Assembly (NCBI GenBank): GCA_036557885.1
Contig: DATBGS010000114.1
Span: 1-31,001 of the forward strand
From: Ktedonobacterales bacterium
Lineage (GTDB): Bacteria > Chloroflexota > Ktedonobacteria > Ktedonobacterales > DATBGS01
DNA: 31,001 nucleotides
Direction: 5' to 3'
A program made the position numbers and the translations under genes. Positions 1,432 to 30,273 of this stretch are shown here, one piece after another. Within the stretch, counting starts at the first letter, position 1, and every line of letters begins with the position of its first letter. The notes beneath the pieces were generated by a model. That model saw nothing but the letters and a program-made list of their open reading frames with translations, made no database searches and was not told the DNA's origin.

Positions 1432-3852
1432 TCACCAGAGGGACTGGCACAGAAAAGCAGAAAAAATGTAAGGGGCGTTCGCTGCGCCAGGTCTGGTGTC
1501 CTCTCTGCCCCAGACCACGCACGCAAACTGCCCCGGTGCGCTTTCGGCTAGCAAGAGTCGTGCCGAGGCATCGCCGAGGCATCTATGTATGGGGATGAAT
1601 ATCTGGGGTGAAGTCGGCAAAACGAGCGGGCATGAAAGCTGGAATGGCTGACCTGAAAGGCAGGACAACGGCAAAGGTTGCGAAATCCTTCTAGTTATCG
1701 CACCTGATACCAGGCGAAGCGGACCAATCACAGGTTCAACGCGCTGTGCTGCAACCGTGCGCACAGAAAGAGCCGCCAGCACTACGCTGTCTGGCAGCGC
1801 GGCGCCTGAACCAGGGAGGCTAAACCATGTGAGCAGCGTTTCGCCAACTTGAAGATGCCCCGGCGTGCATAGTGCTGTGGAGGCAGCGCCTGAAGCGTCG
1901 CTAGTGCCTGTCATGGGCTGAACGCTAAAGAGCAGGCTAAGCGGCTCCGCTCCCGTTCCGGTTGGCTCCTGGTATGTCTGGAGCACGCGCCACCGCAGCA
2001 CCACCAGGCGCTGCGGGCCTGGCAGAGCAACCATCCCTTCCAACGCCAGATGCTGATCTGCAACCACTGGCTGGCTCAGTGTCTGCTCCCCGGCAAGATG
2101 CAGGGTGGAACCATCCACGCGATAGAGATGATCAGGGGGCAGATCACGCACCGGCAAAGTCCTCAGCAATGTTGCTGCTGGCAGCGCAGCAAGCACCTTA
2201 TCAACCGCGCTTTCTTTTTGATCGAACGCAGTTACCACCACCGTTGGCAGCGCCGCTGCTGCTGGCAGTGCCAGGCACGATTCGGCGCTTTGCACCTCAA
2301 CTGCGCCTGGTTCATGCTCGGCCAGATACGCAAACGCGCTCTGTAAAAAGAGAGAACTGGCAACAATCGTGTGCTGAGCGCCGATTGCGTATGCCTCGTG
2401 TTGCCCGGCGCTCAGGCTGGCCTCCTCGGTATCCAGCCCGCGATAAGCCACCATCAGATGGCTGCTAGCCAACGCTTGAAGCCCCAGCAGCACAACAAGG
2501 CTACATACAAGAGCGCCTCGCCAGAGTATCCCTGGCAGCGCGCCCTGGAGTGAAAGAGCGATACTCGCCGGTGGCCTTCGCGCCAGGCGAACGCTTGCTG
2601 TGCTTATTGCCTCTAATAATTTTCCGCGCCGAACAACCCAGGCAAAACATACCCCCAGGGTAATGTAGGGAGCGGGAAAGAAAAGCACCATATAACACTG
2701 GCAATACCCCTGCGTGCGATGAATAAGCAAAAGCAGGGGCGCGGCCTGCCAGATGAACAAAAGAAGCGCGCCTCGCCATTCGGCAGCCTCGCGCACTTGC
2801 CAAAGCGCAACCGCTCCATCGCGCCGCATTGCTTGCAATGCTCGCAGCAGCGGCGCCCCTACCCACCAGCCCAGCCACCCCAACGCCAGCACATACGCGC
2901 CATTCATCAGCCAGCCCAGCCAGGCTGCACTTACCCCAAAAGGAAGCATGCCCTGAAAGCGCAGCACTGCTAATAATTGATCCAGACCCAGCAGATCATA
3001 GGTTGAGGAGGTAGCAAAAAAATGACGCAGCAGAACCCGCGTATCGGCCCAATTACTTACCAGTTCCCAGAGCAGCGTGGGCACATACAACAGCCCAATA
3101 CAAAGCAAGCCAATAACCAGACTCTTCCAGGGAATCCGGGGCCAGAGCAGCGCTAGACCCACCAGCGTGGTTGGAAGAAGATAGGCCATGATGGGATGAA
3201 GCTGGCTCAGCAGCCCCAGGACAATCAGATGCGGAACCAGCCAGCGCTTGCGTTTCTGGACAACCCCGGCATAAAGCGTCAGCAAATACACCAACAGAAA
3301 CGGAGCCACCGCCGTCTGCTGCCAGAAATAGCTGGAATAGAACACCGCCCAGGCCGAAGTCGCATACAGGGCCAGCGTTGCTCCCGCTGCCAGCCGCCCA
3401 AATGCCCGATCCACCACCACATAGGTCATGAGTAGTGCGACAAGATTTGCCAGCGCAATCATCCAGGCAGCACCCAGCGGGCTACCAGCAGCAGCAAACG
3501 GCAAATACAGATAGATTGAGAACGGAGCATTCAGCGTCCCAATGGATGAACGAATACCCGTGACTGGCAATCCGCCGTCTTTCAAGGCAGCCTGGCCGAG
3601 TTGGAGCAGCGCCACTTGATCATCCAAAAATAAGGTGTGATGCAAATCAGCCAGGCGCAGCCAGGCGCCCACTACCAGACCCAGCCAAAGCTCCCACCGC
3701 TTGTACCATTGGTACGCCAAGGCAGATCTGAAGACGCCCGCGCCCCATGCTCGCCAACGTGGTGCCACTGAAACCGGGATGGCTTCCTGGTGATTGCGCA
3801 GCGGGTCACGCGCAATCGTGTGTGGTACTGCGTCTCCAGAACCTGCTCGCAT
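1432..3852 (-). CDS. polytopic membrane glycosyltransferase (GT-C fold, PMT_2/ArnT-like) with a large C-terminal extracytoplasmic domain
   Basis: Continuous minus-strand ORF, 1432..3969 with a GTG at 3969; the first in-frame ATG is at 3852 (MRAGSGD...). There are more than 10 hydrophobic helices. A DD motif sits in the first loop (LFLDDQVALLQLGQ), as in GT39/GT83 enzymes. A ~400-aa Ala/Leu/Pro-rich C-terminal region follows. The start is uncertain (3852 vs 3969). Confidence 0.6.
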   Translation of the reverse strand: MRAGSGDAVPHTIARDPLRNHQEAIPVSVAPRWRAWGAGVFRSALAYQWYKRWELWLGLVVGAWLRLADLHHTLFLDDQVALLQLGQAALKDGGLPVTGIRSSIGTLNAPFSIYLYLPFAAAGSPLGAAWMIALANLVALLMTYVVVDRAFGRLAAGATLALYATSAWAVFYSSYFWQQTAVAPFLLVYLLTLYAGVVQKRKRWLVPHLIVLGLLSQLHPIMAYLLPTTLVGLALLWPRIPWKSLVIGLLCIGLLYVPTLLWELVSNWADTRVLLRHFFATSSTYDLLGLDQLLAVLRFQGMLPFGVSAAWLGWLMNGAYVLALGWLGWWVGAPLLRALQAMRRDGAVALWQVREAAEWRGALLLFIWQAAPLLLLIHRTQGYCQCYMVLFFPAPYITLGVCFAWVVRRGKLLEAISTASVRLARRPPASIALSLQGALPGILWRGALVCSLVVLLGLQALASSHLMVAYRGLDTEEASLSAGQHEAYAIGAQHTIVASSLFLQSAFAYLAEHEPGAVEVQSAESCLALPAAAALPTVVVTAFDQKESAVDKVLAALPAATLLRTLPVRDLPPDHLYRVDGSTLHLAGEQTLSQPVVADQHLALEGMVALPGPQRLVVLRWRVLQTYQEPTGTGAEPLSLLFSVQPMTGTSDASGAASTALCTPGHLQVGETLLTWFSLPGSGAALPDSVVLAALSVRTVAAQRVEPVIGPLRLVSGAITRRISQPLPLSCLSGQPFQLSCPLVLPTSPQIFIPIHRCLGDASARLLLAESAPGQFACVVWGREDTRPGAANAPYIFSAFLCQSLW

Positions 3853-4079
3853 CGTCTGCCTTTCACGAGAACCTGAAGCATTACCTATGCCGCTCTCAAG
3901 GACGTGCTGGCAGAGTGGAATGTAACAACATGGCTGGGAATGCCTGCGTGCAAAAACATGGCAACACACTGCACAGCCACACGCTGCACATAGGAGCGAG
4001 GCCGGAAAGCCTATTCATTAAGCCTTCCAGCCTCGCTGTTGTGAGGAGGGAACAGGGCGAAAAAGTTCTGCGTGGCCTC

Positions 4080-9165: not shown

Positions 9166-9194
9166 TTGACACTCCACCTCCTACCTGATAGCAT
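9166..9194 (+). promoter_or_regulatory. putative promoter (TTGACA, 17 nt spacer, TAGCAT) for the DUF2877 gene
   Basis: A consensus -35 TTGACA at 9166-9171 with a -10-like TAGCAT at 9189-9194, ~35 nt upstream of ATG 9229. Confidence 0.3.
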
Positions 9195-9228
9195 AAGCAA
9201 GGAAAGGCTGGAAAGATCAAGAGGGCAG

Positions 9229-10212
9229 ATGCACCTTCCTATGCGCATACTCCACGCACGTTCCTACAGCACGGCAATACACCCTCTGATAGCAGGACCG
9301 TTGCTCCAGGGAACTGTCCAGAGCATCTTCTCGCGTGCTGCCAACCTTCAGTTTGATCGTCGCCTGGTCACACTTCACGCTCACCTGACGCCTTGTGCCC
9401 CCAATGGCATCACCCTCTCTGTTGAGGCCACCAACTCTCTCCTTCTTGATCTTCAGGCTGGCATGTCCGTGACGATTGAACACGAAACCCTCTCTTTCCC
9501 TGCCATATCTGCCTGCCTGAGCCTTCAAGGAAGCCAACCCTGGAACCCTCGCCCAGTTATTTCTTACGCAGCAGATATGGCGGGCCTGCTAGAACGCAGC
9601 CTGGCGTTCCTTCTTCCCTTGCTGATGAACACAGGCCAATCAGATCCATCAGCAGGCCTGGCCCAACTCGCCCTACTCGCAGATTGCCCCGCTTCGAGCA
9701 TGCCCCCTCATGCCTCGCCGCTTCTGCAAAAAGCCTGGAGCAGCAGTCGCCAACTCATACAAGCCATCGGCCAGCAGCAAATCACAAGAGCAGCCCGCGC
9801 CGCTGAAACATTGATTGGCCTCGGTCCTGGGTTGACCCCTTCTGGAGATGACCTTCTGACTGGCTTAATTGCTACGACCATCCTGCTCAGCGAAGCGCTG
9901 GCCTTGCCCGGCGACTTCTACCGACAATTCGGCAGCGCCGTTCTGGCACTGGCTAAAGACAAAACAACGCACTTGAGCTTACATTGGATAGAATATGCCA
10001 CGCGCGGCGCGGTTTCTGAACCGCTGGGGCGGCTCCTGCAAGCCCTGGTAGTCTCTGATCAGCCACAACAACTGGAGGCAAGAGCCAATGAGGTGCTCTC
10101 TACTGGAGCTACCTCTGGCGGGGATTTGTTGGCAGGCGTCATGCTCGGCAGCCATTGCCTGCTCACACAGCACAAACGAGAGGGGTATACGCATGGCCTT
10201 CACAGTCAGTGA
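9229..10212 (+). CDS. DUF2877-family protein (YlbF/AllH-like subunit of FdrA-DUF1116-DUF2877 complexes)
   Basis: Track ORF 9166..10212 begins with TTG; ATG 9229 is preceded by RBS aagagggcag. It contains the DUF2877-like region GLGPGLTPSGDDLLTGLIAT and co-occurs with fdrA and a DUF1116 gene. Confidence 0.65.
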   Translation: MHLPMRILHARSYSTAIHPLIAGPLLQGTVQSIFSRAANLQFDRRLVTLHAHLTPCAPNGITLSVEATNSLLLDLQAGMSVTIEHETLSFPAISACLSLQGSQPWNPRPVISYAADMAGLLERSLAFLLPLLMNTGQSDPSAGLAQLALLADCPASSMPPHASPLLQKAWSSSRQLIQAIGQQQITRAARAAETLIGLGPGLTPSGDDLLTGLIATTILLSEALALPGDFYRQFGSAVLALAKDKTTHLSLHWIEYATRGAVSEPLGRLLQALVVSDQPQQLEARANEVLSTGATSGGDLLAGVMLGSHCLLTQHKREGYTHGLHSQ

Positions 10213-11887
10213 CGCCCTCAAAATTGGGCCACTCAGTCGTGCCCGTGTCCTGGCTGGCATGGAAGGACTCCAGCGCCCTTTGTCCTATGTCAATGTCATG
10301 GAGGTTCCCGACATCTTAAAATGGGTTCGGTCTGATGAATTACTGCTGACGACCTTGTATCCAATGCGCGACATGACCATCTCGCCACGCGAACTGGTCC
10401 GCGAACTCTCGCGCCGTAATCTGGCTGGTATCGCCGTCAAGATCGGGCGCTATGTTGATACCGTTCCCGACGAAATGATTGAAGCCGCCCAGAGCGAGCG
10501 GCTTCCCCTGCTGGAGCTTCAGCCCGACATCTCCTTTAACGATGTTATCAATTCCCTGCTTGGTGAAATCTTAAACGCGCAGGCGCGCACGCTTCAGCTT
10601 TCACAAGAGATTCACCAGCGTTTCACCGAAATTGTCCTGGCCGGGGGCGGCCTGAATGAGATAGCCGAAAACCTGGCGATCCTGGTCCACAGCCCCATCG
10701 TCATCATCGCCCCAGACCGCCGGGTGCTTGCATCTTCCGAGCCGAGTAATTCAGATGGTTTGCTATCGCGGCTCATCACCCAAAAAGGCGAGCGTCAGCA
10801 TTTGGAAAGCAGCGAACTGGCCGAGAACGGCAGAGTCACCAAAACGGCCACAACCACGCGGCGCATCTTGCGCGTGGGCGCAGAGAGTATAAACTGCGCA
10901 GTCCGACCTATTCGCGTTGGCGCAACCCTCTATGGCTCCATCATTGTCATTCTGCGCGAGCAGGAACCGGATGCCGGTATCAGCATGGCAATTGACCATG
11001 CCGCCACCGTTGCCGCGCTCGACATCATGAAGCAGCAGGCGGTCTTGAATGTCGAGCGGCGCTTCCAGGCCGATTTCCTGGATGATCTGCTCTCTGGGCG
11101 ACTCCACTCACGCGAAGCCATCTTTACCCGCGCCAGCGCGCTTGCCTGGAATCTCGATCAGCCCGCCCTGGTGCTGGTCATTGAGGTTCAACGGACAGGG
11201 AACGATTCACCCCAGCGCTGGCGCAATCATGCCTCCTACCGACGCGATGGAATGCGCCTGATAGATGTTGCTGGGGCCTCACTGCTCAAATATGATCGCA
11301 GCGCCATTCTCTGGGAACGCTCAGATAGCCTTGTCGCAGTGCTCACCGAGCCTTGTGCCCCGCATCAACCCCAATCTGCTCACCTAGCCAGCATGCAAAT
11401 CGCTCAACAGGTCGGCCAGGAGTTACGCGCGCTTGGTGGCGATGCCTGTGCCAGCATCGGCGTGGGGCGGCCCTGCAATGACCCGCTCAAGCTCTACATC
11501 AGCTACGAAGAGGCGCGGCAGGCGCTGATCATTGGCACAAAAGTCTGGGGCCAGGGAGCAATCACCCACTTTGAAGACCTGGGCGTCTATCGCATCTTGC
11601 ATCATCACCACGATAAAGCCGAACTGGATGCTTTTGCCGAGGAAATGCTCGGCAAGCTAATTGAATACGACAGAAAGCGCAATACCGACCTCGTGGAGAC
11701 GCTGGATGTCCTGATGGACTGCAACCTCAACATCTCTGTTGCTGCGCGGCGACTGTATCTTCATTACAACAGCCTGCGCTATCGCCTGCAAAAAATTGAG
11801 GAGTTGATCGGCCCATTTGTAGATGACGCGCAACAGCGCTTTAACCTCCAGTTCGCCCTGCGCATCCGCAAAGCACGCAAGCTCTAA
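10193..11887 (+). CDS. PucR-family transcriptional regulator (purine catabolism regulator-like)
   Basis: Start at ATG 10193 (MAFTVSDALKIGPL..., typical PucR N-terminal PurC-like domain) with RBS gagagggg. The C-terminal PucR HTH is NISVAARRLYLHYNSLRYRLQKIEELIG. It overlaps the upstream gene by 20 nt. Confidence 0.85.
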   Translation: MAFTVSDALKIGPLSRARVLAGMEGLQRPLSYVNVMEVPDILKWVRSDELLLTTLYPMRDMTISPRELVRELSRRNLAGIAVKIGRYVDTVPDEMIEAAQSERLPLLELQPDISFNDVINSLLGEILNAQARTLQLSQEIHQRFTEIVLAGGGLNEIAENLAILVHSPIVIIAPDRRVLASSEPSNSDGLLSRLITQKGERQHLESSELAENGRVTKTATTTRRILRVGAESINCAVRPIRVGATLYGSIIVILREQEPDAGISMAIDHAATVAALDIMKQQAVLNVERRFQADFLDDLLSGRLHSREAIFTRASALAWNLDQPALVLVIEVQRTGNDSPQRWRNHASYRRDGMRLIDVAGASLLKYDRSAILWERSDSLVAVLTEPCAPHQPQSAHLASMQIAQQVGQELRALGGDACASIGVGRPCNDPLKLYISYEEARQALIIGTKVWGQGAITHFEDLGVYRILHHHHDKAELDAFAEEMLGKLIEYDRKRNTDLVETLDVLMDCNLNISVAARRLYLHYNSLRYRLQKIEELIGPFVDDAQQRFNLQFALRIRKARKL

Positions 11888-11951
11888 CCTGGGCGCTCAA
11901 CTCAAACTTTGCAGATATGACCTGTGTAGAATTGTTTCATCACCAGGGGGT

Positions 11952-11976
11952 GCTGGCAAGCGAGGATGCTGGCAAG
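11952..11976. promoter_or_regulatory. tandem direct repeat GCTGGCAAG x2 (16-nt periodicity) in the pucR-fdrA intergenic region
   Basis: GCTGGCAAG at 11952-11960 and again at 11968-11976, ~150 nt upstream of fdrA. A candidate regulator-binding site. Confidence 0.3.
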
Positions 11977-12121
11977 AATCGCAAATCCTGGGGAGTCCTT
12001 TCGTGAGAATTCGCTGTAGACATCACTCCTCTTCTTTGGTAGAAAAGAGAAGGAGAAGAAGTAAAGAACAAAAGCCCTCTGACCAGCTCGCATACCCACA
12101 CAAGGCACGTAAAGGGCAGCC

Positions 12122-13702
12122 ATGATTACAAAAACGCTCGTTCGTCGCAACCTATATGCTGATTCAGTCGCCTTAATGCAGCTCTCTCGCGCGCTGACGG
12201 CGCTCCCAGAGGTGGAAGACGCCGCTGCCGTCATGTCCACCGCAGCCAACCGGGAACTACTCCAGCAGGCGGGGCTGTTGGGGGCAGATGCTGATCCTGG
12301 GGAATTTGGCGGGCCTAATGATCTACTCATCATTATCCGCGCCGCCACCGACGCAGCCATCGAAGCGGCACTGCTGGCGGCTGAACAAGGTCTAAGCCAT
12401 CGAGCAGGTGGAGAGACAGGAACAGTCGCGCAGCAACGCCCGCGCTCACTGGAGCAAGCAGCACGTCAGCAGCCCGCGCTCAATCTCGCGCTGATCTCGG
12501 TGCCAGGCGCGTATGCCGCCGTTGAGGCTCATCAGGCGCTGCTGGCTGGTCTACACGTCCTGCTCTTTAGCGATAATGTCTCGCTGGAGCAAGAAGTTGC
12601 CTTGAAAATGCTGGCCGCCGAACGCGGTTTGCTGCTCATGGGTCCAGATTGCGGTACCGCCATTATCAACGGCATTGGCCTGGGGTTCGCCAACGCCGTC
12701 CCGCGTGGCTCCATCGGGATTGCCAGCGCCTCTGGCACCGGATTACAGCAAGTTTCCTGTCTCATCGCCCATGCCGGACTGGGCATTTCCCAGGCCATCG
12801 GAACGGGTGGGCGCGACCTCTCTCAAGCCGTTGGAGGCCGCACGATGCTCGCTGGGCTGGACCTCCTCCAACAAGACCCGGAAACCAGCGTGATCATACT
12901 GCTTTCCAAGCCACCCGCGCCAGAGATCGCCCAGCGCGTCCTGGAACGGGCAGCGCAAGGCAGCAAACCAACGGTGGTCGCCTTTCTGGGGAGCCATCTG
13001 GACAGGAGCGTAGGGCCTTCCGCTGCCCATCTCCATCTCGCCAACACCCTCAGCAGCGCCGCTCGTCTTGCGGTGCAACTTGCAGGCGGGAGGGTGGTTT
13101 TGGAAAACGAATCGCTCACTGAGGAAATTCGCGCAGCAGCGCAAGCGGCCAAAGCAGCGCTCAGTCCAGAGCAACGCTACGTGCGCGGCCTCTTTTCGGG
13201 CGGCACCTTATGCGATGAAGCCATGCTGGTGCTGAGCCAGCGGCTTGGCCCAATTGCCTCCAACATCCCTCTGCGTCCCGAATGGGCGCTCACCAACCCC
13301 AACCAGAGCCAGGGCCACACCGCCATTGATCTTGGCAGCGATGAATTCACCGTAGGCCGCCCACACCCGATGATTGACGCCGGGCTACGCCTGCGCCGCC
13401 TGGCCCAGGAAGCACGCGACCCAACCACTGCCGTTCTTCTGCTGGACATCGTGCTTGGCTACGGCGCGCATCCCGACCCAGCCGCCGAGATTGCACCGGC
13501 CATACAAGAGGCCAGAAAAGAGGCCGCGCAAGCAGGCCGCAACCTGGCTTGCATCGTATCGCTGTGTGGCACTGAACAAGACCCACAGAGTTTAAGCAGG
13601 CAGCGCGAAGAGTTACAACGGGCTGGCGCGCTGGTCTTCACCGAAAACGCGCTGGCGGCCCAGGTCGCCGCAGAAAGTGCGCCAGCCAAGCGGAGCCAGT
13701 AA
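12122..13702 (+). CDS. fdrA: FdrA-family protein (acyl-CoA synthetase/succinyl-CoA synthetase-alpha-like; AllF-like)
   Basis: The N-terminus MITKTLVRRNLYADSVALMQLSRAL resembles the E. coli FdrA N-terminus. CoA-binding/ligase-like glycine-rich segments are present (GPDCGTAIINGIGLGFAN, GIASASGTGLQ). Confidence 0.8.
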   Translation: MITKTLVRRNLYADSVALMQLSRALTALPEVEDAAAVMSTAANRELLQQAGLLGADADPGEFGGPNDLLIIIRAATDAAIEAALLAAEQGLSHRAGGETGTVAQQRPRSLEQAARQQPALNLALISVPGAYAAVEAHQALLAGLHVLLFSDNVSLEQEVALKMLAAERGLLLMGPDCGTAIINGIGLGFANAVPRGSIGIASASGTGLQQVSCLIAHAGLGISQAIGTGGRDLSQAVGGRTMLAGLDLLQQDPETSVIILLSKPPAPEIAQRVLERAAQGSKPTVVAFLGSHLDRSVGPSAAHLHLANTLSSAARLAVQLAGGRVVLENESLTEEIRAAAQAAKAALSPEQRYVRGLFSGGTLCDEAMLVLSQRLGPIASNIPLRPEWALTNPNQSQGHTAIDLGSDEFTVGRPHPMIDAGLRLRRLAQEARDPTTAVLLLDIVLGYGAHPDPAAEIAPAIQEARKEAAQAGRNLACIVSLCGTEQDPQSLSRQREELQRAGALVFTENALAAQVAAESAPAKRSQ

Positions 13703-13747
13703 CAAGCAGGGCTGGTAAAAAGAGCAAAGCAGCAAGGAGAATATCTT

Positions 13748-15157
13748 ATGGCAGAAAGGGGCTTTCTTGGCAGCCGATTAGAGGTGGTCAACGTTGGGGT
13801 TGATCTGTTTGCCGACGCGCTGACCGCGCAGGGACTGGAGCCGGTTCGGGTCGAATGGCAACCGCCCGCCCAGGGCATGGGCACTGAACTCTGGGCCACG
13901 CTGAGCGACCCGCGCATAGATGCCGCCAATGAACGCGCCGTCCAGCGCATGTTGTCAGCACGGCCAAAGCTGGTGGATGTTTGCCCGGCCAGCGAGGTTG
14001 TCCCAGGCATGTCGCGCCAGACCATCTTGCATGCTGGCCCACCGATCACCTGGGAGCACATGTGCGGGCCGCTGCGTGGGGCGGTGATTGGCGCCCTGTT
14101 GTACGAAGGACTTGCTCAAAATGAAGTAGAGGCAGTTGCGCGTATTGAACGCGGCGAAATTGACTTCTCGTCCTGCCATCATCATCAGGCGGTTGGCCCA
14201 ATGGCTGGCGTAATGTCCTCCTCCATGCCTGTCTACATCCTTGAGGATGAGGTACATGGTCGTCAGTCCTTTTCCACCTTAAACGAAGGGCTGGGAAAAG
14301 TCCTGCGCTATGGTGCCAACAGCCCGGAAGTCTTGCAGCGCCTGCGCTGGATGCGCGATGTGCTCGGCCCGGCCCTGGGGCGGGCCATTCGCAAGGCCGG
14401 TGGCCTGGATGTCAAGCCCTTGACTGCCCAGGCGCTTCAGATGGGCGACGAATGCCATAACCGCAACCGCGCTGCCAGTGCCATTCTCATCCGCGCCCTC
14501 GCGCCATTCCTGGTAGAAACCAGCCAATCGCCCGAAGAGACGGCCAGTGTCCTCCGCTTCATGGCTGGCAATGAGCATTTTTACTTGAATATCTCGATGG
14601 CTTGCTGCAAAGCCTCAGCCGATGCTGCCGCCGGAGAACCATTCAGCAGCCTCGTTACCGCAATGGCCCGCAACGGCACCGAGTTTGGCGTGCGCGTCAG
14701 CGGACTGGGCGAGCGCTGGTACACCGGCCCGGCCCAAAACGTGCGCGGCCTCTATTTTAGCGGCTTCAGCGATGCCGATGCCAACCCCGATATTGGCGAT
14801 AGCACAATCTCTGAAACGGTGGGCATTGGGGGATTTTCAATGGCTGCCGCCCCAGCCATTGCGCAGTTTATTGGTGGTACTCCGGCTGATGCCTTGCGCG
14901 CCACCCTGGAGATGTACGACATCACCCTGGCCGAAGACAGCGCGATGGCCCTGCCGCCTCTTGATTTTCGTGGGGCACCCACCGGCATAGACCTGCGCAA
15001 AGTCGTGCACCTGAACCGCTTGCCTGTTATTAACACTGGCATTGCGCATCGCCTGCCAGGAGTGGGACAGGTTGGTGCCGGGCTGGTCGAACCCCCTCTG
15101 GCGTGCTTCACCCAGTCACTTGTAGACCTGGCAGCGCTGGTACAAAAAAATCCTTAG
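13748..15157 (+). CDS. DUF1116-family protein (YlbE/AllG-like)
   Basis: 469-aa ORF with RBS aaggagaatatctt before the ATG. Its size and position immediately after fdrA match ylbE. Family assignment rests on recall of DUF1116 features and gene context. Confidence 0.7.
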   Translation: MAERGFLGSRLEVVNVGVDLFADALTAQGLEPVRVEWQPPAQGMGTELWATLSDPRIDAANERAVQRMLSARPKLVDVCPASEVVPGMSRQTILHAGPPITWEHMCGPLRGAVIGALLYEGLAQNEVEAVARIERGEIDFSSCHHHQAVGPMAGVMSSSMPVYILEDEVHGRQSFSTLNEGLGKVLRYGANSPEVLQRLRWMRDVLGPALGRAIRKAGGLDVKPLTAQALQMGDECHNRNRAASAILIRALAPFLVETSQSPEETASVLRFMAGNEHFYLNISMACCKASADAAAGEPFSSLVTAMARNGTEFGVRVSGLGERWYTGPAQNVRGLYFSGFSDADANPDIGDSTISETVGIGGFSMAAAPAIAQFIGGTPADALRATLEMYDITLAEDSAMALPPLDFRGAPTGIDLRKVVHLNRLPVINTGIAHRLPGVGQVGAGLVEPPLACFTQSLVDLAALVQKNP

Positions 15158-23684: not shown

Positions 23685-23766
23685 GCCCCCGTGGCGGAAT
23701 GGTATACGCAGCAGGTTGAGGGCCTGTGCTCGAAAGGGCGTGGTGGTTCGAGTCCACTCGGGGGCA
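23685..23766 (+). tRNA. tRNA-Leu (anticodon GAG)
   Basis: Hand-folded cloverleaf. The 7-bp acceptor GCCCCCG pairs with CGGGGGC. D-loop with GG, anticodon stem GCAGG/CCTGT, loop TTGAGGG (U33, GAG, G37). The long variable arm has a GAAA loop. T-arm GGTGG-TTCGAGT-CCACT. Discriminator A. CCA is not encoded. Confidence 0.85.
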
Positions 23767-23774
23767 CCTATTCC

Positions 23775-23803
23775 TTGACTTTTGGTCCAGCATCTGGTAT
23801 GCT
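23775..23803 (+). promoter_or_regulatory. near-consensus sigma-70 promoter (TTGACT, 17 nt spacer, TATGCT) for tRNA-Gly
   Basis: TTGACT at 23775-23780 and TATGCT at 23798-23803. It begins 9 nt after the tRNA-Leu 3' end. Confidence 0.55.
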
Positions 23804-23823
23804 GTGAAATACAAACATCATTT

Positions 23824-23895
23824 GCGGGCTTGGTGTAGTGGTAACATGCGACCTTCCCAAGGTTGAGACCGTGGGTTCGAATCCCATAGCCCGCT
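23824..23895 (+). tRNA. tRNA-Gly (anticodon CCC)
   Basis: Hand-folded. Acceptor GCGGGCT pairs with AGCCCGC. D-stem GTGT/ACAT. Anticodon stem CGACC/GGTTG, loop TTCCCAA (CCC). T-arm GTGGG-TTCGAAT-CCCAT. Discriminator U. 72 nt. Confidence 0.85.
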
Positions 23896-23938
23896 CCTCA
23901 TTTTCATCTGAGCCATGAAAATCCATAAATCAGCGACC

Positions 23939-25693: not shown

Positions 25694-27100
25694 CTATACC
25701 CGCAAACGCGAAGGCAAAATCCGCAGGGATTCACGATATTTTGCCACCGTGCGACGCGCCACAACCAACCCGCGCTCAGCCAACTCAGCAGCCAGTTCTT
25801 CATCGCTCAGCGGATGCCTGGGGTCTTCGCTTGCAATCAATTCGCGCAGGGTATCTTTTGCGCGTAGCGAACCATCAAAAAACTCATCAAAGGGAATGGT
25901 TCGCCCTTCGGGAAGCAGCACAAACTTATTGGCTGTTGCCCGGCTAATCGTAGACTCGTGCAGCCCCACCTTTTGCGCCAATTCCCCGCGCGTGAGCGGG
26001 ACCAAATAGCGCACGCCCTTTTCCAGAAACTCACATTGATACTCCACCAGCGCATCGGAAATCTTCTTCAGCGTCTCCCAGCGTTGATGAATACAATCAA
26101 TAAAAAACTGCGCGCGTGACGTGTAATGGCGAATATGCTGGCGTTCTTCCTCGCTGCTCTGCTGGCGGTCCAGATGCTTTGCCAGATGGTTATAGGTGGG
26201 ATTCAGCCGGAACAGGTATTTCTTATTCTCGACTACCTCCGCCTCAAAGCCCGTTTCCACCCGGCGTATAACGACATCTGGGCGCACCAGCGTGGTGTGC
26301 GCGCGAGCGCCTGCACCGGCGCTTGCAGACGCATCATAAACGTGCGCAGGGAAAGGCGTCAGGTTTGTGCGGATAAATTGCCATGCCTGGCGCACATGCG
26401 AGCCAGGCGCGTGCACCTCCCGCGCAATCTCCGCAAAGCGATGCTCGCCAAGCTGGTTCAAATACTTGTCAACCAATTTCTCAGCCAGCGGCTGTGGGCT
26501 GCCCAGCTCTCGAAACCAGCGCAGTTGAATCAGCAGGCATTCGCGCAGATCGCGTGCCCCAATCCCAACTGGCTCCTGCATCTGCAAAATGTCCAGAACA
26601 TGCAGCACCTGTTCGAGAGCCACCCGCAATGTCCAGGCAGCCTCCTCAACCGAAACCTGCAAATACCCGTGACTATCCAGATTCCAGATCAAATACTCAG
26701 CAATGGGGAAATCGTCGGGGGAAACCATCGTGCGCATATGGGAAAGCAGCGACTCCTCCAAAGACTCCAGCGATTCTACACGCGCCAGCGGATCATAGTC
26801 ATCTTCTTCGCTACTCGACACCCCCGGCTCGTTGTAATCCTCCCATTCAGGGGTGTTCTCCGCCCTGCTGCCAGCCGTCGTACCACAGTTCGGACAGATT
26901 CCATCCTTCATCTGCGTCCCACAGCACTGGCACTGGCTCACTTCTTCCATCTCAAATGCCGGGTTATCTCGCACCTCCACAGCAGCCAATTGCTCCAATT
27001 CCTCAGCAGAAAGCTGCAAAATCTTAATCGAGGCTATCAACTTTGCAGAAATATTTAGTGAGGTCTGTGGTACGATTGACGGGTCTTGCTTTAAAAACAT
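25694..27100 (-). CDS. rpoN: RNA polymerase sigma-54 factor
   Basis: N-terminal region I, Leu/Gln-rich (LIASIKILQLSAEELEQLAA). C-terminal RpoN box ARRTVAKYRESLRI. ATG 27100 has RBS GAGAAGGAAGACGCAG. There is an unusual CxxC...CxxC insert (CQCCGTQMKDGICPNCG) in region II. Confidence 0.9.
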   Translation of the reverse strand: MFLKQDPSIVPQTSLNISAKLIASIKILQLSAEELEQLAAVEVRDNPAFEMEEVSQCQCCGTQMKDGICPNCGTTAGSRAENTPEWEDYNEPGVSSSEEDDYDPLARVESLESLEESLLSHMRTMVSPDDFPIAEYLIWNLDSHGYLQVSVEEAAWTLRVALEQVLHVLDILQMQEPVGIGARDLRECLLIQLRWFRELGSPQPLAEKLVDKYLNQLGEHRFAEIAREVHAPGSHVRQAWQFIRTNLTPFPAHVYDASASAGAGARAHTTLVRPDVVIRRVETGFEAEVVENKKYLFRLNPTYNHLAKHLDRQQSSEEERQHIRHYTSRAQFFIDCIHQRWETLKKISDALVEYQCEFLEKGVRYLVPLTRGELAQKVGLHESTISRATANKFVLLPEGRTIPFDEFFDGSLRAKDTLRELIASEDPRHPLSDEELAAELAERGLVVARRTVAKYRESLRILPSRLRV

Positions 27101-27149
27101 CTGCGTCTTCCTTCTCGTGTCATAGACGGAGCCTCGCTGAGGCAGAAGC

Positions 27150-27866
27150 CTACAGCCAGCCGCTGGCTTCCAACGCCAGCCGTGCCGCTTCTTGCTCTGC
27201 GCTTTGCTTGTTGCGCCCCTGGCCGCGACCTGCGACCTGTTCCCCTAAAAGTACCTCGACACTAAAGAGACGATGATGAGATGGGCCTTCCTCCTTCACC
27301 ACCCGATAGGTTGGTGTCAGCCCTACCTCGGCCTGGGCCAGCTCTTGAAATAGCGACTTATCATCTTTGAAGTGGGGCTGAGAAACGATGCGCTTTGCCG
27401 CAGCCTCCAGTATAGGCAGCAAAAATCTTCGCACTTCCTCCAGCCCGCCATCCAAATAGATTGCAGCGAGAAGCGCCTCAAACGCGGCTGCTAGAATCGG
27501 ATCGCGTTCACGCCCGCCCGTCCGTTCCTCGCCTTTGCCCAGACGCAAGAAGGTACCTAGTTCCAGGCTGCGTGCAAAGCCCGCCAGCGTCTGTGTCTTC
27601 ACCAGCGCCGCGCGCGCATCGGTTAGCTCCCCTTCACTCAGCACAGGGTAACTGCGAAAGAGCGATTCAGCACTCAGAAACGCCAGAATCGCGTCTCCCA
27701 GAAACTCCAGGCGCTCGTTGTAGCGCTCACCCGACACTGGTGTCTCATAAACATAGGAGCGATGCGTCAGCGCCTCCAACAAGAGGCTACGCTCCTGAAA
27801 ATGAACCCCCAAACGCTGCTCAGCGTGCTGCACCAAAAGCGCAGCGTCGCTGCTTTTGGTGCTCAT
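27150..27866 (-). CDS. rnc: ribonuclease III
   Basis: RNase III signature ERLEFLGDAIL and a C-terminal dsRBD (GPSHHRLFSVEVLLGEQVAGRGQGRNKQSAEQEAARLAL). Start at ATG 27866 (MSTKSSDAALL...) or the upstream ATG 27899. Confidence 0.9.
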   Translation of the reverse strand: MSTKSSDAALLVQHAEQRLGVHFQERSLLLEALTHRSYVYETPVSGERYNERLEFLGDAILAFLSAESLFRSYPVLSEGELTDARAALVKTQTLAGFARSLELGTFLRLGKGEERTGGRERDPILAAAFEALLAAIYLDGGLEEVRRFLLPILEAAAKRIVSQPHFKDDKSLFQELAQAEVGLTPTYRVVKEEGPSHHRLFSVEVLLGEQVAGRGQGRNKQSAEQEAARLALEASGWL

Positions 27867-27951
27867 AGAACCATTCTTCCGTCCCGAATGCCTGCGCATT
27901 GGCCTCGCTTCTCTTTATTCTCAAGATTGCGCCAGCATACTAAGAGGCAGC

Positions 27952-28998
27952 TCAGGCCACTTTGATGCCCCTATTAGCAATTACCTCGCCAATTTGCCAA
28001 CAAGCAAGATTTTCTTCCAAAAATTTGCTCTGCACCACCGGCCAGAGTTCCGGCCTCACCGCTGCCAGGAGGCCACCGGAAGTCTGCGGATCAAAAAGCA
28101 AATCGCGTTCAGTTGGCCCAAAATTTGCTGGCAATGTGACAAACTCATTGAGAAATTCCTCGTTGCGTCCCGTCCCGCCAGGCACACACCCGGCTGCCGC
28201 GTAGTGCTGCGCCCCAGGAAGCCAGGGCAGCTGCTCCCACCAGAAGCGTATCCCTCCCTCGCTTTGCAGCGCCATTTCCCAGGCATGCCCCAGCAGCCCA
28301 AAGCCGGTCACATCGGTGCAGGTGCGTACCCCGGCCTGCACCAGCACCTGCGCGGCTTTGCAGTTGAGCGTAGACATGCTGGCTATCGCAGCTTCAAGAT
28401 CACCTTCATCCACCTGTTCGCGTTTATGTGCCGTCGTAATCACGCCAGTGCCCAACGGTTTAGTCAACACCAGCACATCCCCAACCTGGGCCTGGCCTTT
28501 GGTCAAAATCCGTTCAGGATGCACGATGCCCGTCACCGCCAGCCCGTATTTCGGCTCTTTATCGGTGACAGTATGGCCGCCAGCAATCACCCCCCCGCCT
28601 TCCATCACCTTATCGCGCCCGCCCCGTAATATTTCGATGAGAATTTCCGGCTCCAGGTTATCGGGGAATGCCACCAGATTTAACGCAAAGAGCACCTCGC
28701 CCCCCATCGCGTAAACATCGCTCATGGCATTGGCCGCCGCAATAGCGCCAAACGCATAGGGATCATCTACCACCGGAGGAAAAAAGTCAGCCGTACTCAC
28801 AACGGCCTGCTCGCCATTTAGCCGATAGACCGCCGCATCATCAATGCTATTCAGCCCCACCAGCAAATCTGGGTGATTATGCTCCGGCAAGGGAGTAAGT
28901 GGACGCAGCACGTGCGCCAGGGCCGCTGGACCCATCTTTGACGCTCAACCAGCGCAACTGGCAAGCGAGGTCAGACGGATTTTTCTGCCTGTGCTCAT
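27952..28998 (-). CDS. selD: selenide, water dikinase (selenophosphate synthetase) SelD, selenocysteine-containing (in-frame UGA at 28947-28945)
   Basis: The track ORF (27952..28935) aligns with E. coli SelD only from ~residue 25 onward. Reading the same frame upstream through the TGA gives M-S-T-G-R-K-I-R-L-T-S-L-A-S-C-A-G-U-A-S-K-M-G-P.... This matches the E. coli SelD N-terminus IRLTQYSHGAGCGCKISP, with U at catalytic Cys17 and Lys20 conserved. ATG 28998 has a strong RBS TGAAAGGAGGGAGGAGAACC. Downstream the SelD AIR-synthase-like fold is clear (TTDFF..DDPY.FG.IAA.NA.SD..AMGG; VTDVTGFGLLGH). Confidence 0.8.
28945..28947 (-). other. UGA selenocysteine codon within selD
   Basis: Minus-strand codon TGA, 17 codons after ATG 28998, flanked by the GCT-GGT (A-G) and GCG-TCA-AAG (A-S-K) codons and aligned to Cys17 of E. 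coli SelD. Confidence 0.75.
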
Positions 28999-29153
28999 GT
29001 GGTTCTCCTCCCTCCTTTCAGTGGAGTCAGTGTAGCTGGTGGTCCGCGCTTGTTGTATCCAGGCTTTTGCTGTTATTATAGACCGCACACAGCGAGCACG
29101 ACAATCCAGCAACCTGTTCCATGCTCCTTTCTGGGTGCTCGTTACACGTGTTC

Positions 29154-29226: not shown

Positions 29227-30273
29227 ATGCGTCAAATCGCAATTCTGGCAGAGGGGCATTTCACCTGGCAGGGGGCAAAAACAGCCGTTGGCGTCATCCG
29301 CTACGGACAAGACAAGGTTGTCGCAGTGATTGACAGCACCAGAGCCGGGCAGGATGTCGGACAGCTATTAGGGGGCGTGGGCGCGGGCATCCCCATTGTG
29401 CGCGATGTCTCCGAGGCGTTTCAGCATCACCCCGATACGCTGCTGATTGGCATTGCTCCGGTAGGTGGCCGCCTGCCTGACCCCTGGCGGGCGCAAGTCA
29501 GGCAGGCATTGGATCACGGTCTGTTCATCATTAGCGGCCTACACGAATTTCTGGACGACGACCCTGACCTTCACGCGGCAGCCGAACGCCACCATACCTC
29601 CATCTGGGATGTGCGCCGCCCTCCAGCAGAGCGAGCCATGCTCATCGCCAAATATACGCCCCACCGCCCCGGCAGCCACACCGTCTATCTGGCCGGAAGC
29701 GATTGCAACGTCGGAAAAATGACCGTCGCCCTGGAACTTGATCGAGAAGCGCAGCAGTGTGGCCTGTCTTCGGGCTTTGCGGCCACCGGACAAACGGGCA
29801 TCATGATCTCCGGGCGCGGGATGCCGGTAGATCGGCTGATCAGCGACTTCACTGCCGGGGGCGTCGAGGCGCTGGTGTTGGAATTCACCGCAGAATATGA
29901 CTGGGTTTTTGTGGAGGGCCAGGGGTCGCTCATTCATCCAGCGTATTCGCCCGTAACGCTGGGGCTGCTGCATGGCGCCATGCCAGATGTTATGCTGCTC
30001 TGCCATCAGGCACGCCAGACCAACATCAAGGGCTATCCTGCCGTGCCGATTCCGCCGCTGCGCCGGATGATCGAAATCTACGAGCAAGCAATGGGTTGGC
30101 TGCGTCCAGCACCAATCGTTGGTATCGCCCTGAACACCTTTGAACTCAGCGAGGCTGAAGCAGACGACGAAATTCGCCGCGCCGAGGACGAAACGGGCCT
30201 ACCCGCCACCGATTGCGTGCGTTTTGGCGCGGGCAAGCTGATTGACGCGCTCCTGGCCCATGCTGCGCAATAG
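29227..30273 (+). CDS. DUF1611-family protein (Rossmann-like N-terminus + P-loop-like domain; DgcN-like putative N-acetyltransferase)
   Basis: RBS gagagggggagg precedes the ATG. The N-terminus MRQIAILAEGHFTWQGAKTAVGVIRYGQDKVVAVIDS is typical of DUF1611_N. A C-terminal domain carries a GKMT P-loop-like segment. It is paired with a downstream enolase-superfamily epimerase, as recalled for DUF1611 genes. Confidence 0.75.
   Translation: MRQIAILAEGHFTWQGAKTAVGVIRYGQDKVVAVIDSTRAGQDVGQLLGGVGAGIPIVRDVSEAFQHHPDTLLIGIAPVGGRLPDPWRAQVRQALDHGLFIISGLHEFLDDDPDLHAAAERHHTSIWDVRRPPAERAMLIAKYTPHRPGSHTVYLAGSDCNVGKMTVALELDREAQQCGLSSGFAATGQTGIMISGRGMPVDRLISDFTAGGVEALVLEFTAEYDWVFVEGQGSLIHPAYSPVTLGLLHGAMPDVMLLCHQARQTNIKGYPAVPIPPLRRMIEIYEQAMGWLRPAPIVGIALNTFELSEAEADDEIRRAEDETGLPATDCVRFGAGKLIDALLAHAAQ

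Follow-up and report, generated by a model that had tools for sequence, protein, structure and literature searches.

Towards the end of a 31,001-nucleotide stretch of a Ktedonobacterales genome (GenBank contig DATBGS010000114.1; the whole stretch is referred to as the window) lies a selD gene whose start poses a question. The mechanically called open reading frame (ORF) runs from 27952 to 28935 on the minus strand, begins with ATG and encodes 327 aa. Upstream on the same strand, and in the same frame, 17 sense codons opening with another ATG (28998-28996) lead to a TGA (28947-28945), after which the 327-codon ORF follows. Does this TGA terminate translation, or is it decoded within a longer gene? 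We consider it very likely that the window selD starts at ATG 28998 and reads the in-frame UGA as selenocysteine (Sec) at the catalytic residue, so that the enzyme would itself be a selenoprotein. A prediction made earlier from the DNA letters had claimed exactly this, placing the UGA at the column of the catalytic Cys17 of SelD. It is supported by the match to the family, the recurrence of the UGA, the conservation upstream of it and the RNA structure found across the family.

On re-reading the sequence, we confirmed what the original prediction had stated about the region, namely the ORF start at 28935, the TGA upstream, the ATG at 28998 and a strong Shine-Dalgarno sequence in front of the latter. 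The GGAGG within AAAGGAGGGAGGAG is located 8 nt 5' of ATG 28998, and inspection of the sequence revealed no comparable Shine-Dalgarno 5' of ATG 28935. In most of the six close relatives introduced below, the same ATG is preceded by a purine-rich block resembling GGAGG; in L091 and L090, the most distant of the six, this block is weaker (GAAGG or AAGG). The first 21 codons of selD are dropped by gene callers because the in-frame UGA is taken as a stop rather than as Sec.

We then examined the protein encoded by the complete frame. For profile searches, the TGA in the 348-residue recoded SelD was replaced by a placeholder Cys. Among the NCBIfam models, TIGR00476 (selD) matched residues 8-317 with 387.6 bits (cutoff 125) and NF002098 matched residues 5-343 with 355 bits (cutoff 299). 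Both hidden Markov model (HMM) matches thus start at residue 5-8, upstream of the TGA. The called product, like all homologues, is annotated with the domains AIRS and AIRS_C (PF00586, PF02769). The best match among solved structures in the PDB was E. coli SelD (3U0O; phmmer, E=1.6e-75, residues 5-345). In this alignment, residues 5-21 of the window protein lie on residues 4-20 of the E. coli enzyme, with the UGA on Cys17 and Lys21 on Lys20, which bears out the predicted N-terminal correspondence and the retention of Lys20. The SelD chain 2YYE from Aquifex aeolicus, presumably a naturally Sec-type enzyme crystallised as a Cys mutant, has Cys in the column aligned with the UGA. Full-length homologues from cultured Ktedonobacteria have ..RLTxLASCAGCAAK.. 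at the site of ..RLTSLASCAGUASK.. in the window, and the Cys-type SelD proteins of Ktedonosporobacter rubrisoli, Dictyobacter arantiisoli and Tengunoibacter tsumagoiensis start at the alignment column of ATG 28998. Alignment to the SelD families, which had been proposed as a check, therefore places the UGA in the Cys/Sec column, where Cys-type homologues carry Cys. Judging from these matches, the gene is a SelD equivalog (selenide, water dikinase, or selenophosphate synthetase), full length once recoded, and the synthesis of selenophosphate from selenide and ATP is its predicted activity.

The TGA is not peculiar to one assembly. An identical gene, TGA included, is present in four independent assemblies (L001-L004) from three Joint Genome Institute (JGI) samples and one Sequence Read Archive (SRA) run; contig Ga0376026_0000268 (81 kb) of the JGI metagenome 3300037153 is one carrier. 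We also obtained, via exact-protein look-ups, the DNA of six close relatives with 65-93% identity, and all six share the ATG, the 17-codon extension, the TGA and the ASKMGP that follows. One of the six bears the NCBI name Thermosporothrix hazakensis selenophosphate synthase. A broader set, taken from reference genomes, comprised 80 SelD loci among the matches listed (48-65% identity), mostly metagenome-assembled genomes (MAGs) of Chloroflexota. At the catalytic column of these 80 listed loci, the codon is TGA in 67, TGC in 8 and TGT in 5. When the more distant reference-genome loci listed are counted, TGA occupies the column in 66 of 79, and the motif (I/V)RLT..A.CAG*A.K is kept on either side of the TGA in the distant loci. 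Recurrence on this scale goes far beyond what chance would give.

These observations bear on whether the TGA arose from a TGC or TGT through a mistake in sequencing or assembly, or marks a decaying pseudogene. A change of one base from TGC or TGT would suffice, and Cys-type SelD does occur in the same class. Yet the same TGA is found in the four assemblies, in 6/6 close relatives and in 66 other genomes, the rest of the coding sequence is undamaged and subject to purifying selection, and RNA structure co-occurs specifically with the TGA, as described below. We regard the probability of an error or pseudogene as practically negligible. A base-call error, which the original prediction had named as the finding that would overturn it, is excluded because the same TGA occurs in independent assemblies and lineages.

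Concerning translation upstream of the UGA, the 17 codons differ from those of the six relatives by 40 synonymous and 11 non-synonymous changes, counted over six non-independent pairwise comparisons. The 51 nt directly 5' of ATG 28998 are only 22-47% identical to those of the same relatives. As change within the codons is mostly synonymous and the 5' untranslated region has diverged, we conclude that the 17 codons are translated. Homologues starting at the downstream Met and lacking similarity upstream, the outcome that the earlier prediction had set against itself, were looked for; the opposite was seen, with the extension and the TGA in every relative. TGA terminates 7 of the 21 long ORFs in the window, selD among them. 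It is thus a normal stop in this DNA, and the recoding is therefore local and site-specific.

Were the UGA at 28947 a real stop as well, SelD would begin at ATG 28935, and the upstream 17 codons would be a tiny ORF or an untranslated leader. Every gene caller output does start at 28935, and the fold of the window RNA past the UGA is not individually significant. Among database proteins, the 25 nearest (75-100% identity) have lengths of 326-328 aa throughout and cover 94% of the recoded query, the truncation at Met22 being common to them all. A protein truncated in this manner, however, would contain neither the catalytic position (Cys/Sec17) nor the initial half of the glycine-rich loop. In addition, the upstream codons are conserved, with mostly synonymous change, in proteins from 93% down to 48% identity, the strong Shine-Dalgarno sits before ATG 28998 and not before 28935, and the SelD HMM match begins upstream of the UGA. 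Termination at this codon is, in our judgement, highly improbable.

If the UGA is read as Sec, an RNA structure of the selenocysteine insertion sequence (SECIS) type is expected 3' of it, and the original prediction had suggested such a hairpin with its apical loop 16-37 nt from the UGA. Two adjacent hairpins are predicted in the window (Table 1). The proximal hairpin has 5 bp and a 4-nt loop located 16 nt past the UGA, and the distal hairpin has 6 bp and a 5-nt loop located 32 nt past the UGA; their energies with dangling ends are -7.3 and -7.2 kcal/mol, respectively. The distal loop CGUGC has a G at one of its two leading positions. For the proximal loop, this holds only in a weaker register with the loop AGC. 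In an alternative extended stem, a lower helix (GCGUCA/UGGCGC) is formed, and this is the minimum free energy (MFE) structure in the window, L087 and L088. In the window, the extended-stem form (-15.0 kcal/mol) is nearly isoenergetic with the two-hairpin form (-14.5 kcal/mol), and composite structures range from -14.5 to -16.3 kcal/mol. Both loops thus lie within the predicted distance, and a SECIS-type hairpin past the UGA finds support at the level of the family. On the other hand, the window fold is not significant against its controls, and the specific pairings put forward earlier are not the main helices: the CCAG/CUGG helix is a weak alternative (-2.5 kcal/mol), and the palindrome GCACGUGC is unable to fold on itself. 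As the window fold alone is not significant, it is the comparison across the family that supports a SECIS.

We thus compared the RNA of 67 Sec-type and 13 Cys-type loci, only four of the latter being Ktedonobacteria-like, with synonymous recodings of each gene in which its protein and codon usage are preserved. The median z of the structure against its own recodings was -1.52 for Sec-type genes (26/67 with p<=0.05) and +0.20 for Cys-type genes (0/13; Mann-Whitney p=1e-5). The difference was found in the proximal region (median z -1.55 for Sec-type and +0.62 for Cys-type) as well as in the distal region (-2.45 and -0.31), each of the two being significant by itself, and a control segment of the same genes showed no difference (median z 0.29 and 0.16). 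We also applied strict criteria for the bacterial SECIS (bSECIS), scored on bare perfect hairpins: a loop of 3-9 nt, a stem of 4-16 bp, G in the first two loop positions, a spacing of 16-37 nt and an energy of -7.5 kcal/mol or below. Hairpins of this kind were found at 53/67 Sec-type loci vs 2/13 Cys-type loci (Fisher p=2e-5). Among Sec-type genes (n=73), both hairpins are kept in 47, the proximal only in 9, the distal only in 13 and neither in 4; the corresponding numbers for Cys-type genes (n=13) are 1, 2, 0 and 10.

The family consensus of the distal hairpin is GCGCAG-GUN-CUGCGC, 81.8% paired by a fixed-column count. Synonymous sites in its stem, the third position of a Gln codon and the first position of a Leu codon, covary: the combinations were CAG-CUG in 38 genes, CAA-UUG in 10 and mixed in 1 (Fisher p=1.3e-9), with the ten A-U cases scattered across several lineages. 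The Ala codon of the stem is GCG in 56/61 Sec-type genes vs 3/8 Cys-type genes. For the proximal hairpin, the register shifts from lineage to lineage, which makes fixed-column covariation weak (59-63% paired), and the per-sequence tests above were therefore used. The lower helix of the extended stem is 61.7% paired across the family, with almost no covariation. These results revealed that both hairpins are under RNA-structure selection in Sec-type, and not in Cys-type, genes.

Which hairpin SelB would recognize was also considered. There is no trade-off in stability between the proximal and distal hairpins (Spearman 0.17, p=0.14), and the functional hairpin is therefore not picked out by this test. 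The distal hairpin shows the strongest covariation of the candidate elements and fits the N-G-[G/U]-N-N loop pattern. Given its fit to the published G-[G/U] loop rule, we lean towards the distal hairpin as the SelB site, the proximal one then being an accessory or alternative. A bolder proposal, which we find unlikely, is a two-part recoding signal in this and most of the sampled Chloroflexota SelD genes, in which the hairpins at ~+20 (the canonical position) and ~+37 (G-G/U loop), both selected, would switch folds and could thereby tune readthrough of the selD UGA to SelB or selenium. If true, switching between the two folds would add control at the RNA level to the Sec-dependent feedback already known for SelD. 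The two-hairpin layout is a mildly unusual aspect of these genes and may simply reflect the known variability of the SelD SECIS. A different arrangement was seen in four Sec-type loci of Methylomirabilota-type MAGs (L061, L065, L074, L075), where a single 8-bp palindromic hairpin at +17..+36 past the UGA (UCCUGGAG / CUCCAGGA, loop GAUC) replaces the two hairpins and lies ~5 nt further downstream.

Several points weigh against Sec decoding at this codon. The window RNA is no more stable than its dinucleotide shuffles (z +1.47), and against synonymous recodings the structure as a whole has a z of -0.15, and the hairpins have z values of -1.0 and -1.2. The bare window hairpins, at -6.4 and -6.1 kcal/mol, are just short of the published cutoff of -7.5 kcal/mol, and the loop of the proximal hairpin, CAGC in the best register, has no G at either of its two leading positions. 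Rfam gave no match in the window, whether at gathering thresholds or in a permissive scan, and hence no SECIS family. The RNAalifold consensus amounts to just 3 pairs, and the comparative counts over SelD loci ignore kinship. Finally, selA, selB, tRNA-Sec and a second selenoprotein gene are absent from the 31 kb window and from ~150 kb of Ktedonobacteria flanks, and that the window organism decodes Sec is something we infer.

In searching for this machinery, tblastn with SelA and SelB of E. coli K-12 gave zero matches in the window or any Ktedonobacteria locus. A tRNA-Sec search of the window and 87 loci detected the gene only in Photobacterium (L048) and Clostridiales (L084). With regard to a second TGA-interrupted gene, 50 candidates in the window were inspected, and a Cys/Sec-type context was found only in selD. 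Elsewhere, a Sec-type selD adjoins selB on a Dehalococcoidia chromosome (L083; TIGR00475, 305 bits, cutoff 242) and a partial selB in an Anaerolineae MAG (L018), and selA, selB and tRNA-Sec are all near the Sec-type selD of the Clostridiales MAG (L084) and of Photobacterium (L048). The presence of selA, selB and tRNA-Sec in the window genome is logically required if the UGA is read as Sec.

As no Sec machinery was found in the window or in the Ktedonobacteria flanks, we considered site-specific recoding to another residue, in which Cys would be delivered through SelB by a tRNA with a UCA anticodon, or near-cognate readthrough would occur, giving a functionally Cys-type SelD. According to work cited in PMC13582414, tRNAs with a GCA anticodon, like those with a UCA anticodon, have been reported to recode UGA with a SECIS. 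Against this stands the fact that, where genomic context is available, Sec-type selD adjoins selB, selA or a tRNA-Sec(UCA). Moreover, the standard mark by which Sec is recognized is a UGA conserved at a redox-active Cys column and accompanied by a SECIS-like structure, and SelD is a classic selenoprotein (PMC1794560, PMC13188914). Insertion of a residue other than Sec thus seems very unlikely to us, and the residue at position 18 would be selenocysteine.

With Sec at this position, expression of selD can be pictured as follows. Translation would initiate at ATG 28998. The mRNA structure within the next ~45 nt (28902-28944) would recruit SelB carrying Sec-tRNA(Sec) at the UGA (28947-28945), presumably by binding of SelB to the predicted structure 3' of the UGA. 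Selenocysteine would be inserted at residue 18, in the N-terminal glycine-rich loop, and the ribosome would proceed to the gene's own TGA stop (27954-27952). As SelD makes the selenium donor needed for Sec synthesis, synthesis of SelD would depend on the supply of selenium, resulting in a positive feedback of the kind discussed previously for Sec-type SelD.

Table 1. Features of the selD locus, in window coordinates.
Feature	Position	Strand	Remarks
Complete selD coding sequence	27952..28998	-	348 codons including Sec18; TGA stop at 27952-27954
In-frame UGA, residue 18	28945..28947	-	Catalytic column of E. coli SelD Cys17
N-terminal 17 codons MSTGRKIRLTSLASCAG	28948..28998	-	Left out by gene callers; first part of the glycine-rich catalytic loop
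Shine-Dalgarno AAAGGAGGGAGGAG	29005..29018	-	For ATG 28998; sequence read directly
Internal Met22 codon	28933..28935	-	Mis-called start in ORF finders and in JGI/NCBI calls
Sigma-70-type promoter-like site TTGTCG-18-TATAAT	29075..29104	-	10/12 consensus matches
Proximal hairpin GGGUC-CAGC-GGCCC	28920..28933	-	+15..+28 from the U of the UGA; in MFE folds
Distal hairpin GGCGCA-CGUGC-UGCGUC	28902..28918	-	+30..+46 from the U of the UGA; G-U at loop positions 2-3
Alternative extended stem	28914..28944	-	Lower helix 28939-28944/28914-28919 encloses the proximal hairpin; excludes the distal hairpin

The surroundings of selD were also inspected. A promoter-like site lies ~77 nt upstream of the gene, and its -35/-10 pair is kept in L085-L088. 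On the strength of its consensus match, it is a predicted promoter that would serve either start codon. The ~50-nt leader from TATAAT to the Shine-Dalgarno (29025-29075, minus strand; ACAGCAAAAGCCUGGAUACAACAAGC...) is near-identical in the three closest genomes (the window, L085 and L086), and the sequence upstream of it diverges. The gene order selD, rnc (RNase III), rpoN (sigma-54), at 25694-28998 on the minus strand of the window, is kept as far as Thermosporothrix (L085-L088, L090). The divergent DUF1611 gene at 29227-30273 is a neighbour of selD only in the closest relatives. In L002, an insertion sequence (IS) element (465-1608; HTH_Tnp_1 and rve integrase) is located ~2.4 kb from the identical selD; the window and L001 are without it, and the insertion is strain-level variation.

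Further away, at 9166-15157 on the plus strand, a cluster encodes AllH (PF11392), a PucR-type regulator, an FdrA-like CoA-ligase-domain protein and AllG (PF06545). From its domain content, the cluster is assigned to the oxamate carbamoyltransferase, allantoin/purine-catabolism type, and no link to selenium was shown for it. ORFs 9166-10212 and 10088-11887 share 125 nt, and the second of them therefore probably starts further downstream than called. For an ORF of 845 aa with many hydrophobic segments (1432-3969, minus strand), Pfam gave no hit at E<=1e-5. Apart from the adjacent tRNA-Leu(GAG) and tRNA-Gly(CCC) at 23685-23897 on the plus strand, no RNA genes were found in the window.

The immediate consequence is a correction of annotation: the catalytic residue is missing from the deposited models of the window gene and of the ~25 relatives closest to it (327 vs 348 aa). 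The other sampled Sec-type loci are very probably truncated alike, judging from the TGA in 66/79 of the loci listed and from homologues of 329-335 aa. Sec-type SelD has frequently been mis-annotated (PMC1794560, PMC13188914, PMC13326102). The result also marks an uncultured Ktedonobacteria lineage and the cultured Thermosporothrix as probable users of selenocysteine, with the implication that selA, selB, selC and possibly other selenoproteins are still to be found in those genomes. Our literature search found no paper on Sec use in Ktedonobacteria.

The window gene can be compared with several known systems. Already in 2006, SelD, with 38 members, ranked second in size among the bacterial selenoprotein families (PMC1794560). 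Known Sec-containing SelD proteins, such as those of Aquifex aeolicus (2YYE/2ZOD) and Acetomicrobium mobile (in BSepDB), belong to the same family, have the same ..G-U-A-x-K.. loop and carry the UGA at the column equivalent to Cys17. Stem-loops directly past the UGA and truncation by gene callers, as in the window, have been described for this family (PMC13326102, PMC13188914). The window differs in that it, like most of the sampled Chloroflexota genes, has two adjacent selected hairpins and not one, and in that its Sec-type SelD comes from an uncultured lineage of the class Ktedonobacteria. Variability of the SECIS and the distinction between Sec-type and Cys-type SelD are the subject of Inoue et al. 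(2024), as cited in PMC13582414.

E. coli SelD (3U0O) has the same Lys20 and the same AIRS/AIRS_C core, but its Cys17 is encoded by UGC without recoding, whereas the window codon is UGA. Closer at hand, the Cys-type SelD proteins of Ktedonosporobacter rubrisoli, Dictyobacter and Tengunoibacter (59-61% identity) have the same start column and the motif LASCAGCAAK; unlike the window gene, they use TGC or TGT and are without the downstream hairpins, with neither hairpin kept in 10 of the 13 Cys-type loci sampled, four of which are Ktedonobacteria-like. Reversions from Sec to Cys have been noted specifically for SelD (PMC1794560), and the apparent loss of the hairpins in Cys-type genes is consistent with such conversions and with the SECIS decay reported to accompany them. 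The class Ktedonobacteria contains both Cys-type (L005, L007, L008, L010) and Sec-type (L006, L009, L085-L088, L090, L091) SelD.

With regard to the RNA, the proximal hairpin and the lower helix of the window together resemble what we take to be the lower-stem, internal-loop and upper-stem layout of the SECIS of E. coli fdhF. As in fdhF and in the bSECIS model, the stem-loops lie within the coding sequence directly past the UGA, and the spacings of 16 and 32 nt in the window are within 16-37 nt. In contrast to the fdhF element, the window has no sequence similarity to it, no Rfam match, two candidate hairpins and energies marginally short of the threshold. The distal loop matches the N-G-[G/U]-N-N pattern of the consensus bSECIS model by Zhang and Gladyshev (2005; see the summary in PMC13188914), and the proximal hairpin is spaced from the UGA as in E. 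coli fdhF and in the SelD SECIS that BSepDB shows as an example (PMC13326102). Set beside these systems, the window selD is an ordinary further case of the well-known Sec-type SelD and leaves the understanding of Sec decoding as it stands.

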